Shown: one piece after another, positions 44,692 to 47,600 of the stretch
Numbering within the stretch: position 1 is the stretch's first letter
How the letters are laid out: every line of letters begins with the position of its first letter
DNA from: Microbotryum violaceum
Lineage: Eukaryota
Length of the DNA stretch: 64,000 nt
NCBI GenBank assembly: GCA_001244265.2
Contig: CDLV01000005.1
Coordinates: 1,550,001 to 1,614,000, forward strand
Direction of reading: 5' to 3'
The notes under the pieces: generated by a model
What the model saw: only the letters and a program-made list of their open reading frames with translations
The model's database searches: none
What the model was told of the DNA's origin: nothing
Position numbers and translations under genes: made by a program

Positions 44692-47600
44692 TGTGAGGAA
44701 TCCACTCTCCGCTCGGCTCAGGACTTAGGCGCGCAGAGCGAGCCTGGCGCACCGGCCCAGGACTTAGGCGCGCGCTCGCCTGGCGCACCGGCCCAGGACT
44801 TAGGCGCGCGGAACAAGCCAGGCGCACCGGCTCAGGACTTAGGCGCGAGGAGTGAGCCTGGGACTTAGGCGCGCGAAATGAGCCTCGCCCACAGCCCCAG
44901 GACTTAGGCGCGCAGGGCGAGCCTGGGCCATTGGCTCAGCCCCAAGGTTCGCAGCCTGAGGACTTGAGGCGCGCGGCTCTCTTGTTGTTAGCTTCCTATT
45001 CATCACTCTTGGCTATAACTACATCACTGACGTAGTAGAGTTGATCGAATAGGTATGTTGTAATGAATTCATCACTCTTGGCTATAACTACATCACTGAC
45101 GTAGTAGAGTTGATCGAATAGGTTATCAGCCCACGAGCTACCAGCCTCGCCGCCTTGCGTTTTTTCCTCGAGCTTAGCCACTCGACCGCACACATCCATT
45201 CGCACCATGGGCAACTCTCCCGCTCCCGCACCGCCCTTGCCCCCAAGGATTCTCCCAGCCCCCCTGAATCCTCGATCGCCGCACAAATTGCAACTCTACA
45301 GGCACAGCTCGCCAAAGCGAGCCTTGAGAGCGGTGAAGATGCGCGGTGCTGAGAGATCGTCACTGGGAATGGCGTCGAGCGTGGCCGAGACGTCCGCGGA
45401 GTCGATAGAGCCAACGATGAGTTCCCGGCCGCCCCCGCCACGCAGACCAACGCCGCTACCTCAGCCAAAGTCGTGTTTCCCAAACACGCTCGCCTCGACG
45501 GTCCCAAATCGTTCACCAACTGGTTGCGTCAACTCCGTCTTGCGCTCCCGAATCAAGTCCGTGCTTACGTCCTCGAAGGTGTCGTTCCCGCTACTTGGAC
45601 GGCCGATCAGCTTGCCGCCCGTGACGACGCCGCCCGGGAACTCATCGTTGGCTCTATCGACTCCGCGGACGTCTCGGCCACGCTCGACGCCATTCCCAGT
45701 GACGATCTCTCAGCACCGCGCATCTTCACCGCTCTCAAGGCTCGCTTTGCACCCGACGATGCTACCCGCACCCTCGAGTTGTTCGCCCGCCTTTGGGATT
45801 TCAGGAAGATGCCTGCCTCCGTCGAGGCATACAACACCTGGCTGCGCGAGTACATGTCCATCGTACAAGAAATTCGCGACGCCACTGGTCTTTCGACTGC
45901 AAAAAGGCTCTCGAGAACGGCAAAAAGGCCGACACGGCGAACTCGACCGCCAACTCGCAACACCATGTCGGATGTCTCGCTACCGGCCTTCTCGCTCATC
46001 GTCGCCAGCTTTGCGCCAACTCCTTCGTCATTGACTCAGGCGCCACTTCGCACATGGTCTCGGACAAGTCACTGTTCACGAACTATCGACACGTCGCTCC
46101 TACGAAGATTGGTGGTATTGCAGGGGGTATTAACGCCATCGGGACGGGAAACATCGCCTTCGTTGCCGCCTCGGGTCATCCGATCACGCTCACTGGTGTG
46201 CTGCACACTCCAGGCCTGCCTGTCAACCTTCTCTCGGTCTCACGTCTCTGCGACACCGACAACGTCCGCGTCGCCTTCACGAAATACGGCATACACATTG
46301 ACAAAGATGGCAACAACATTGCTGAAGGCGCAAGGCTCGACGAAGGGCTCTACTTGCTGGACGCTGATCATTCCAAATGTCAGCAGCTTGCTCTCCTCTC
46401 TCGCTCACAGTCTTCCGTGCCCTTGCTGACTCTCCACCGCTGCCTTGGCCATCTCGCACCGTCATCCATACAGAAGATGGTTGCCACTGGTTTGCTGGAG
46501 GGTCTCGGGGCCGGATATAGTGACGAAGAGGTAGAGAAGTTTGTCTGCAATGCTTGCCTCAGTGCCAAGGGCCATCGTCTTCCTTTTCCCGATTCGGATT
46601 TGCACTCCTCCGAGAGACTCGGCGTTGTGCACAGTGATGTGCTTTCCCTCCCGAGCGGTCCTTGACTGGCAAACAGTACCTTGTCACGTTCCTCGACGAT
46701 TACTCCCGCAAACTCTGGGCCTACGCAATCGGACACAAAAGCGAAGTGTTCGGCGTGTTCAAGACTTGGCTTGCCGAAGTCGAACTCGAGACGGGTGAAA
46801 CATTGAAGGTCCTCCGAACTGACAATGGTGGCGAGTATTGCTCGAGAGCATTTACGGAGTTCTGCAAGGCGCGAGGTACGCGTCGACAATACTCTATCCC
46901 TCGCACGCCTCAACAAAACGGTCGGGCGGAGCGGGCAATCGGTCCATTGTTGAAGGTATTCTTGCCCTTCTGGCGGACGCCCATCTACCCAAGACATTCT
47001 GGGAGGAGGCTGCGGCTTACTTCGTTTACTGCAAGAACCTGGTTCAACACTCGGCTCTCGACAAGGCAACACCAAACTCGGTCTGGCAGGGCGGACGCAC
47101 CACAGCCTCCGCGCTTCACCCGTTCGGCTGCACAGCTTGGCTCACGGTCGCGCCCGAACTTCGCTCGAAACTCGACCCCAAGGCGGTTCGCGTTCTCTTC
47201 ACCGGCTACGACCTGGCTTCCAAAGCCTTCCGTTTCTACGACACAACGACCAAGAAGATCATTTTGGGCAGAAATGCCAGCTTCCTCGACACTGAATTCC
47301 CCGGTTTACTTGGCGACTCCACCGAGGAAGACGCCGACACGCACTTCGCCAGCGCTCCCTTCGCCGACCCTCAAACCACCGCCAAGTCATGGACCCCACT
47401 AGTAAGGTCGGCGCACATGGACGTCTCATCCCCTCTTGATGATTCTTCCATGAGCGCCGTTGACGTGGCCCCAGGGTACACTGGCGGATCCTTACTTAAT
47501 TACACAGATGCCGAATCGCCCGCGTCACCGTCGCCTGCGCCGTCCTCGTCACTGTCTCCTGAGCCGCCCTCGTCGCCATCGCCTGCGCTCTCGACTGCGC

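Follow-up and report, generated by a model that had tools for sequence, protein, structure and literature searches.

In a 64-kb stretch of Microbotryum violaceum DNA (the window), six LTR families (V, U, T, X, Z and W) feature the same intron-like unit of 58-79 nt, made up by a spacer starting with GT and by a second copy (E2), ending with YAG, of the sequence found immediately upstream of the spacer (E1). The unit resides in both Copia and Gypsy elements. The six families announced by the sequence-only reading do share the layout, but X and Z are mutually related, and on sequence grounds the independent lineages are five; two more LTR families, G and S, were examined and have no such unit. 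The reading by which the unit is an intron lost from the RNA and rebuilt at each retrotransposition cycle hangs together, and accounts for the anatomy better than its rivals; it is unproven, and we rate it at slightly less than an even chance.

LTR X, the 5' LTR of a Copia element (44692..45120, plus strand), begins with TGTGAGG and ends with ...GAATA; one contig of run X15 joins 49521 to 44692. A pyrimidine-rich tract containing TTAG (44976..44997), the presumed core promoter or TSS context, immediately precedes E1 (44998..45052), the presumed first exon (R), which ends with ATAG. The 14-nt spacer (45053..45066, GTATGTTGTAATGA) carries the 5' splice-site motif GTATGT and two upstream ATGs, and E2 (45067..45121), the same as E1, terminates in ATAG, the TAG being the candidate acceptor, and is followed by GTTATCAGCCC. 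Spacer and E2 form a candidate intron of 69 nt (45053-45121), which is also the period of the repeat. The 55-nt copies and the 69-nt unit, already described from the sequence, were found again by our own repeat scan with 0 mismatches over 55 nt (the repeat is absent from the TRF list), identity extending 2 nt more, to 45054 and 45123. A CTGAC motif is found at 45095-99, its A located 22 nt from the 3' end.

E2 of LTR X directly adjoins the primer binding site (PBS, 45121..45146, plus strand), whose sequence complements the stretch of an initiator-type tRNA-Met made up by the D arm and the anticodon arm (half-tRNA priming), and the G of the acceptor is the first base of the PBS, as had been proposed. 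The pairing begins at GG, because the initiator-tRNA-like sequences matched run on as ...CATAACC/CAAAGG; a mini-X insertion bounded by a target site duplication (TSD) ends, in turn, with ...AATA. Removal of the unit regenerates the LTR-end/PBS junction exactly, and the expectation that splicing would leave this junction intact holds at the sequence level. Half-tRNA-iMet priming is a mode known from Copia/Ty5-type elements. LTR X resembles them in that its PBS, with GG directly after the LTR, matches the anticodon and D arms of an initiator-type tRNA-Met; the likeness concerns the PBS only, and has no bearing on the intron-like unit. A scan of metagenomes with the PBS pattern gave 120 matches at 119 loci, all with G at the variable base. 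The tRNA anticodon/variable arm GACCTYYG lies upstream in 116 of the 120 (three of the others are truncated by contig ends, one is odd), and the matches were rejected as new LTRs, as their flanks were judged, by inspection, to be those of tRNA genes. Viral contigs scanned with the reverse transcriptase of X yielded no relative.

A second X LTR with its PBS (Xrc, 60528..60898, minus strand) has the same layout (E1 60676-60622, spacer 60621-60608, E2 60607-60553), and sits in a 630-nt insertion (60269-60898) flanked by a 5-bp TSD, CACTC. X and Xrc differ by two substitutions in E, each found in both copies. LTR Z, the 3' LTR of a Copia element related to X (50306..50429, minus strand), carries E1 at 50429-50375, a spacer at 50374-50361 (GTATGC...) and E2 at 50360-50306, the 69-nt unit being GTATGC..ATAG. 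That this LTR might end beside a PBS was considered and rejected, the DNA past 50306 being an inverted Copia gag fragment. X and Z have diverged by about 40% in E, their spacers are homologous (10/14), and CTGAC and ATAG are the islands conserved within E. Inside single X/Z LTRs, E1 and E2 differ at 0/55, 1/55 and 2/55 positions (at least 96% alike). Judging from these comparisons, E1 and E2 are evolving in concert. A Z-type 3' LTR on the plus strand (49522-49833) has a lone E (49779..49833), without spacer and without E2; that the segment 48774-49833 is wholly LTR was rejected, as it consists of a pol 3' end plus this 312-nt LTR.

In the other families the size of the copies and of the spacers varies, the order does not. 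The 5' LTR of a Gypsy element, T (42471..42552, plus strand), has E1 at 42471-42494, a spacer at 42495-42528 (GTGAGC...) and E2 at 42529-42552, which includes CTGAT and ends with CCAG (58-nt unit, GTGAGC..CCAG). U, the 3' LTR of a Copia element (41786..41908, minus strand), has E1 at 41908-41864, a spacer at 41863-41831 (GTATGT...) and E2 at 41830-41786, ending with TCAG (78-nt unit, GTATGT..TCAG). V (4416..4561, minus strand) has E1 at 4561-4495, a spacer at 4494-4483 (GTTAGT...) and E2 at 4482-4416, ending with CCAG (79-nt unit, GTTAGT..CCAG). Tracts like the pyrimidine tract of X are found ahead of E1 also in T, V, Z, U and W, and CCAAT/TATA-like motifs were noticed by eye, along with pyrimidine tracts, 5' of E1. 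Placement is that of an R region, the PBS starting 0 nt after E2 in X and 16 nt after it in W. Units in 5' LTRs have gag/pol downstream on the same strand, those of U and Z come after the C-terminus of pol, and the Pfam domains encountered are RVT_2, rve and Pol_BBD in Copia, RVP_2, RVT_1 and Chromo in Gypsy elements. No element with both its own LTRs was found in the 64-kb window.

Family W varies in copy number. Its units are of two types, A (72 nt, GTGTGT..GCAG) and B (68 nt, GTGAGC..GCAG, with a pyrimidine-rich body typical of introns). W1, a Copia 5' LTR (61695..61829, plus strand), has E at 61695-61757 and one 72-nt unit at 61758-61829, followed by a 16-nt U5 and the PBS. W2, also a 5' LTR (56858..57064, plus strand), has E plus two 72-nt units (56921-56992 and 56993-57064), then U5 and PBS. 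W3 (51980..52042, plus strand) is a 5' LTR with a PBS and a lone E, and is thus intron-less. W4, an LTR without PBS (59121..59535, plus strand), has E and then five units, arranged as B, A, B, A and A, and W5 (51455..51657, minus strand) has E, a B unit (51594-51527) and an A unit (51526-51455). The number of E copies per W LTR is therefore 1, 2, 3 or 6. A G>A change is common to W1 and W2 in the last copy only, a pattern that fits regeneration and inheritance through unspliced RNA equally well.

A 5' splice-site motif at the repeat boundary, reported earlier, was confirmed in every family, as was a YAG at the end of the unit, in the sense strand of the element. The donors of the seven unit types are GTATGT, GTATGC, GTGAGC, GTATGT, GTTAGT, GTGTGT and GTGAGC, all similar to GTRNGT, the fungal consensus for U2-type introns; the acceptors are TAG, TAG, CAG, CAG, CAG, CAG and CAG, and every type measures 58-79 nt and lies on the sense strand. 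Could such signals arise by chance on ordinary LTR tandem repeats, or be an assembly artefact? Any tandem repeat bearing AGGT will always yield a GT...AG unit of one period, and the window has 511 AGGT sites. Yet the extended donor motif resides at the copy/spacer boundary, in the sense strand, in all six families. The motif AG/GT[AGT][AT]G[CT] occurs 29 times in the 128,000 position-strands of the window (both strands), and 16 of these 29 sites are exact boundaries between E and unit, all in the sense strand of the element, so that the enrichment of splice signals at LTR repeat boundaries that had been predicted is present in the window. Only 13 sites in 128,000, about 1e-4 per position-strand, lie away from boundaries; by our own arithmetic, P is well below 1e-10 for five independent lineages, a 10-fold slack being allowed. 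The layout moreover recurs within the window, in two separate copies of X and in five of W, and spacer words were found in DNA contigs of run X1, possibly the sample of the assembly itself. Chance or artefact is very unlikely. Nor does plain tandem duplication explain the boundaries, because the spacers (9-34 nt) are unique and are not repeated after E2, the copy/spacer boundary reads AG/GT, and the copy spans from the end of the pyrimidine tract to the donor.

The likeness in size to host introns was borne out on a small sample of five, three RNA-supported (63-127 nt) and two identified by eye (about 92 and about 177 nt), against 58-79 nt for the units. Host donors are GTCAGT, GTAAGC, GTGAGT and GTGAGC, and CTGAC is the branch motif in four of the five host introns. 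The branch-point signal in the units appears weak. CTRAY is found 10-40 nt before the acceptor in three of the seven (X, Z and T, the first two being related), against 0.10-0.16 in shuffled sequences; the looser YTNAY is found in 7/7, against 0.29-0.70 in shuffles.

Contigs of runs X1, X15, X16 and X18, all assembled with k=31, were compared with 35900-55899. Run X18 behaves as RNA, since a host gene (37849-38348) shows three skips in it, each GT..AG. None of the 15 joints listed, out of 43, removes 45053-45121 or any other unit, and X15, X16 and X18 have zero cover at 45062; both results are neutral on splicing, as k=31 contigs are blind to E longer than 31 nt, the spliced form of which adds no new 31-mer.

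The units might also be unspliced, the GT motif after R having another role, for instance binding the U1 snRNP so that the 5' R is not prematurely cleaved and polyadenylated, or forming part of a 3'-end signal, with E2 being a second R left by strand-transfer errors. In HIV-1 a downstream donor suppresses the promoter-proximal poly(A) site, a precedent for such a role, and the branch motifs are weak in four of the seven units. The explanation leaves aside that YAG lies exactly one period from the donor in every unit, its removal restoring the leader, that the islands conserved between X and Z are just CTGAC and ATAG, and that the body of the W B unit is pyrimidine-rich as in introns. In addition, the poly(A) site would come with E2 into the 5' leader as well, and splicing would still be required. 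We regard an unspliced role as improbable, if less so than chance.

According to the regeneration model, the unit would be a short GT-AG intron of the spliceosomal type, lying entirely within R, the transcribed end of the LTR. E1 would span from the TSS to the donor, followed by the GT-spacer, and E2, a copy of E1, would provide both the YAG acceptor and the region of the branch point. The unit would be spliced out of transcripts from the 5' LTR, joining E1 to U5/PBS, while the 3' copy would keep it, since the RNA would end at or near the acceptor. Minus-strand strong-stop DNA copied from RNA spliced at its 5' end would be complementary to E1 and would anneal to E2 at the end of the 3' R, and its extension via spacer, E1 and U3 would rebuild an intron-bearing LTR. 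Strong-stop DNA landing on E1 instead would give rise to single-copy LTRs, and unspliced strong-stop DNA pairing out of register to arrays of three or more units. We infer splicing itself, a TSS at the start of E1, a poly(A) site at the end of E2, the packaging of spliced RNA and a benefit for expression.

The self-regenerating intron first proposed has partial support, from donor, acceptor, junction, concerted change of the copies and single-copy LTRs. The latter are W3, the plus-strand Z-type LTR, and single-copy T and U variants found in DNA, and count for regeneration as by-products predicted by the model. The weak branch point and the arrays fit less well. Arrays of 3-6 units can also be spread by misalignment of the unspliced type or by DNA slippage, which could homogenise the copies too. 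W3, a 5' LTR in which the PBS is intact and the unit missing, speaks against regeneration, as do families G and S. The notion that a 3' LTR would lack the acceptor is valid for X and Z only. The acceptor is internal to the LTR by 16 nt in W, about 13 nt in T and about 47 nt in V, and as a consequence the 3' copy would be complete in these families unless polyadenylation precedes the acceptor.

The copy-number lability of W (1, 2, 3 and 6 E copies) and the apparent functionality of single-copy LTRs such as W3 are also expected if the units are scars of reverse transcription. Mis-transfer of strong-stop DNA, or end-to-end template jumps, would add R plus a few bases, and only insertions removable as introns, in which E ends with AG and the spacer starts with GT, would persist, inherited via unspliced genomic RNA, E2 having no regenerating role. 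By eye, some 7 positions in 10 agree between the W spacer (GTGTGTAAC) and the start of U5 (GCGTGACAAC), as expected from an end-jump of R plus the first part of U5. The birth of introns by tandem duplications containing AGGT is documented in the accessible text of PMC3265369 and PMC4974935, and that of introns from repeat expansion, in Cryptococcus, in that of PMC2395259. Outside W, in contrast, spacers are unlike the sequence past E2; a prior AG end of E is required in five lineages, and the strong donor consensus in all seven units is left unexplained. Reverse transcriptases are generally known to delete direct repeats readily. The persistence, even so, of the architecture and of a homologous spacer in X and Z, whose E are so diverged, points to a long stable transmission, and counts against scars. 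The scar explanation is a serious possibility, on balance doubtful.

Some known systems share features with the regeneration model. Penelope-like elements have, according to the accessible text of PMC2377424, an optional 75-bp intron in the terminal repeat/promoter, about 46 bp downstream of the TSS, spliced in most transcripts and yet kept in new copies, the deletion of which abolishes reporter expression. The likeness is a short intron of the spliceosomal type, a candidate one here, within the terminal repeat of a retroelement. Penelope-like elements, however, combine a telomerase-like reverse transcriptase with a GIY-YIG endonuclease, and have no LTR/PBS strand-transfer cycle, whereas the Pfam domains found here are those of Copia and Gypsy, with no Penelope-type reverse transcriptase with GIY-YIG among them; the same text of PMC2377424 mentions no duplicate of exon 1 within the intron. 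In AGGT duplication introns (Hellsten et al. 2011; potato RdRp), as set out in the available parts of PMC3265369 and PMC4974935, the donor comes from copy 1 and the acceptor from copy 2, and splicing removes one period, restoring the original RNA. Here too donor and acceptor are tied to two direct-repeat copies, and exactly one period would be removed. Those introns, as far as the same parts go, are plain tandem copies in host genes, with AGGT anywhere within, while the units described here have a unique donor spacer and a copy spanning from the presumed TSS to the donor, and reside in R of mobile elements of five lineages; the order is E-spacer-E and not two adjacent full copies with an internal AGGT. 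In split-intron retroviral vectors (Ismail et al. 2000, via the accessible text of the review PMC3182074) the donor is copied from the 3' to the 5' LTR, and a functional intron is formed in the provirus. They are similar in that reverse transcription assembles the intron. As described there, the vectors differ because engineered, with an acceptor downstream of the packaging signal, and without an exon-1 decoy or rebuilding at each cycle. Among retroviruses, HTLV/BLV and foamy viruses have the major splice donor in R, hence at both RNA ends. They differ in that the acceptors follow only after kilobases, the genome is the RNA that stays unspliced, and the intron extends beyond the LTR. In the literature covered (subscription journals and supplements being outside its scope), the accessible text of PMC12130899, PMC7175516 and PMC12810828 included, no natural LTR-retrotransposon was found with an intron in the LTR or with strand transfer from spliced RNA.

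Reverse transcription of spliced RNA normally removes introns, and this poses a dilemma for a retroelement needing a promoter-proximal intron. The host has the look of a basidiomycete, and that mRNA accumulation depends on introns is documented for basidiomycetes in the accessible text of PMC3744415 and PMC4935854. In full, our proposal is that basidiomycete Copia and Gypsy elements carry an efficiently spliced intron in R, rebuilt at each cycle as strong-stop cDNA of the spliced leader lands on an exon-1 decoy, 3'-terminal in the genomic RNA, a natural upkeep of a 5' intron where introns are needed for expression, single- and multi-copy LTRs being mis-landings; we put it forward tentatively, and with less confidence than the regeneration of the intron as such. 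If true, an exon-1 decoy closing the intron on its 3' side would be a simple, convergently used solution to the dilemma, and tandem repeats in the R region and variation in LTR length would be tied to splicing. The units would represent the natural counterpart of Penelope introns and of engineered split-intron vectors, and the order E, GT-spacer, E-YAG beside U5/PBS a signature searchable in any genome. If only the scar reading holds, and scars of reverse transcription are neutralised by splicing, the units would clearly exemplify the recurrent birth of introns in mobile elements.

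Nested LTR retrotransposons make up 0-7.2 kb and 39.5-64 kb of the window (Pfam scans and self-comparison), with host genes (LIM, CDC37, proteasome subunit, Sec2-like, NIP7) between them; the Sec2-like ORF suggests Basidiomycota. The layout proposed at 44998-45132 by the sequence-only reading is borne out by the sequence and by a simple period scan, which caught a repeat missing from the TRF output. In X, the 5' LTR of a Copia element (Pfam: gag from 45207, Pol_BBD/pre-integrase, RVT_2 to 48756), the two repeat copies E1 (44998-45052) and E2 (45067-45121) are identical 55-mers, the match running two bases on, GT, in each, and are separated by a 14-nt spacer, GTATGTTGTAATGA. 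E2 carries CTGAC, its A 22 nt from the end, terminates in ATAG and is directly followed by GTTATCAGCCCACGAGCTACCAGC. Spacer and E2 form the unit, a candidate intron. A second X LTR in reverse orientation (Xrc, 60898-60528) has the same layout, and a variant, GGTTATGAGCCCAACGAGCTACCAGC, of the primer binding site (PBS). Four nt of the X spacer (45062-45065) are missing in about 15% of the contig depth of sequencing run X1 (2478/16150), indicating that spacer length differs among genomic copies; the donor hexamer is intact. Within the X gag region resides a 119-nt inverted duplication, 99% identical (45313-45431 / 45631-45749), the left arm of which is absent from other copies, as DNA contigs of runs X1 and X15 skip 45313-45422.

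The sequence of an initiator-type tRNA-Met from the D-arm to the anticodon stem is complementary to the X PBS. A PBS pattern scan of metagenomes returned tRNA-like contexts only, ...CATAACC followed by CAAAGGTC (tRNA sense), and pairing therefore starts at GG, leaving the preceding LTR base (A) unpaired. The 630-nt insertion holding Xrc (60269-60898) is bounded by a 5-bp target duplication, CACTC, and ends with ...CCTAATA, supporting ...AATA as the terminus of the X LTR. Given this terminus and pairing from GG, the PBS begins with the G of the acceptor AG, as had been proposed, and excision of 45053-45121 restores the E|PBS junction exactly. The expectation that a 3' LTR lacks the acceptor holds for X and its relative Z only, the acceptor being 16 nt inside the LTR in family W, about 13 nt in T and about 47 nt in V; in these three, the 3' copy would depend on the poly(A) site for its protection. 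The 630-nt insertion, located in an LTR of family G, comprises a 371-nt X-type LTR, the PBS, tRNA-like bases GGGTTCAAGCCCC, a pair of tandem 55-nt repeats, a tract rich in G and some 100 nt that end in CCTAATA. It could be a very small element with unlike ends, either non-autonomous or internally deleted.

Each unit was read in the sense strand of its element. T, a Gypsy 5' LTR upstream of gag/RVP_2, has a 34-nt spacer (GTGAGC...), acceptor CCAG and a 58-nt unit; U, a Copia 3' LTR directly after a pol C-terminus that shares 45% identity with the Z one, a 33-nt spacer (GTATGT...), acceptor TCAG and a 78-nt unit; V, an LTR inserted in a Gypsy pol, a 12-nt spacer (GTTAGT...), acceptor CCAG and a 79-nt unit. 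In Z, a Copia 3' LTR, a 14-nt spacer (GTATGC...) and acceptor ATAG form a 69-nt unit. The Copia family W features two unit types, A (72 nt, 9-nt spacer GTGTGTAAG/C, acceptor GCAG) and B (68 nt, GTGAGC..., pyrimidine-rich body, end ...ACTTAC...GCTTGAGCAG). A pyrimidine-rich tract precedes every E1. The claim that six LTR families share the arrangement stands for the layout, which recurs in T, U, V, W, X and Z; X being related to Z, these make five lineages, and the claim is incomplete, as two LTR families of the window, G (chromovirus LTR; 6737-7243, 52435-52916, 60141-61253) and S (39576-39846), have no unit. The window's remaining tandem arrays (GC-rich repeats in the U3 of X, the 55-nt repeat of the 630-nt insertion) lie off the R end and lack a GT/AG boundary. 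T, V, X, Z and S, a set with Copia as well as Gypsy LTRs, have a YTTAG-plus-pyrimidine motif that directly precedes the presumed start of transcription (e.g. 42455-42470, 4562-4577, 44985-44997, 39721-39745); the motif may be a core-promoter/initiator element of the host.

Counting both strands, the window has 29 sites with the motif AG|GT[AGT][AT]G[CT], 16 of which fall exactly at E|unit boundaries; at least one of the 13 others (37615) is probably the donor of a host intron. With some 1e-4 sites per position-strand as background, the motif's presence where copy meets spacer, on the sense strand and in all five lineages (X and Z being counted once), rules out coincidence, and chance or artefact is an extremely improbable source of the pattern. 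A donor serving some role other than splicing is quite unlikely. YAG closes each of the seven unit types. CTRAY lies 10-40 nt before the unit end in three of the seven (X, Z and T only; shuffles 0.10-0.16), the loose YTNAY in all, but at 0.29-0.70 expected from shuffles; judged by these motifs, branch-point support appears much weaker than donor support. Host introns, as read from X18 RNA contigs and sequence, have donors GTCAGT, GTAAGC, GTGAGT and GTGAGC, contain CTGAC in 4 of 5 cases and range from 63 to about 177 nt. A plus-strand host gene (37610-38348) has at least three introns in X18 (37855-37981, 38069-38181, 38286-38348), and a fourth probably begins at 37615. Four runs were compared, all as Logan contigs, X18 being taken as RNA from the three GT..AG skips in this gene. 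Where E exceeds 31 nt, a spliced leader offers no 31-mer absent from the unspliced locus; for T (E = 24 nt), no contig bridging the unit was found among the matches listed.

The anatomy is as expected if E1 were the first exon, from transcription start to donor, and E2 its cDNA-derived copy at the 3' end of the intron. With the candidate intron upstream of the PBS, spliced RNA would still be a full genome, with PBS, gag-pol and 3' LTR. For an efficiently spliced intron to outlast the first strand transfer, the complement of E1 would need a pairing site downstream of the intron, which E2 would provide. That an R-contained intron is rebuilt in this way via E2 is a reading we hold tentatively, at slightly less than even confidence. 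Its main rival, which we consider rather unlikely, reverses cause and effect: strand-transfer errors would insert R and a few bases, and only spliceable insertions would survive. The W spacer does resemble the start of U5, and intron birth by tandem duplication is documented; against this, spacers are unique, and X and Z share a long joint history. The two are clearly homologous in the region of the unit, having in common the upstream TTAGCTTCC motif, 10/14 spacer positions, CTGAC and ATAG. Their E sequences are about 40% different, yet E1 and E2 differ at 0/55 positions in X, 1/55 in Xrc and 2/55 in Z, so that the copies have been held alike over a long time. Two substitutions separate the E of X from that of Xrc, each found in both copies, and the spacers have two private differences. 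Under the regeneration model, the last copy would be overwritten one way. Five of eight E1/E2 differences across families, scored by eye, are TCG>TTG on either strand (U, Z, W1; 41786-41908, 50306-50429, 61695-61829). They look like decay after insertion, and the pattern is consistent with the TCG-targeted C>T mutation bias on repeats, such a bias being found in some basidiomycetes.

The number of E copies is labile. W 5' LTRs with a PBS have one (W3), two (W1) or three (W2); W5 is E+B+A and W4 E+B+A+B+A+A. T and U have single-copy variants among the DNA contigs (of runs X1 and X15, respectively), and the Z-type 3' LTR at 49522-49833 has one E only. Strong-stop DNA landing on E1 would yield single-copy LTRs, and unspliced strong-stop DNA landing out of register longer arrays. 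Judging by W3, elements can evidently do without the candidate intron.

The Copia element at 44692-49833 seems to have arisen by recombination between two related elements at the DNA level, since its LTRs are unlike (X-type 5', 44692-45120; Z-type 3', 49522-49833) and one X15 contig joins 49521 straight to the X-type LTR start (44692). A Copia gag fragment (49834-50305), about 80% identical to X 45467-45753 and devoid of PBS, 5' UTR and start codon, lies between two Z-type LTRs in opposite orientations, pointing inwards; the plus-strand LTR meets it right after the E copy (TTATAG|CGACC). At 54743/54744, about 437 nt of a 4828-nt X15 contig are missing from the minus-strand chromovirus copy; the plus-strand copy (4700-7243) still has the matching part.

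The closest natural analogue is Penelope, in which a 75-bp intron situated 46 bp after the transcription start is spliced, retained and required for reporter expression (PMC2377424). Penelope-like elements differ in belonging to another class, without LTR strand transfer. Intron birth by AGGT-containing tandem duplication (PMC3265369, PMC4974935) has the same geometry as the units, their unique spacer apart; an engineered parallel exists in split-intron retroviral vectors (PMC3182074). The earlier reading was aware of no prior description, and open-access literature text yielded no account of LTR retrotransposons whose R contains an intron with a duplicate of exon 1. In basidiomycetes, intron-dependent mRNA accumulation is on record (PMC3744415). 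The LTR architecture is real and strongly non-random, and apparently undescribed so far. From sequence, the reading of the unit boundaries as splice donors is very well supported, and splicing itself and the regeneration cycle are plausible proposals.
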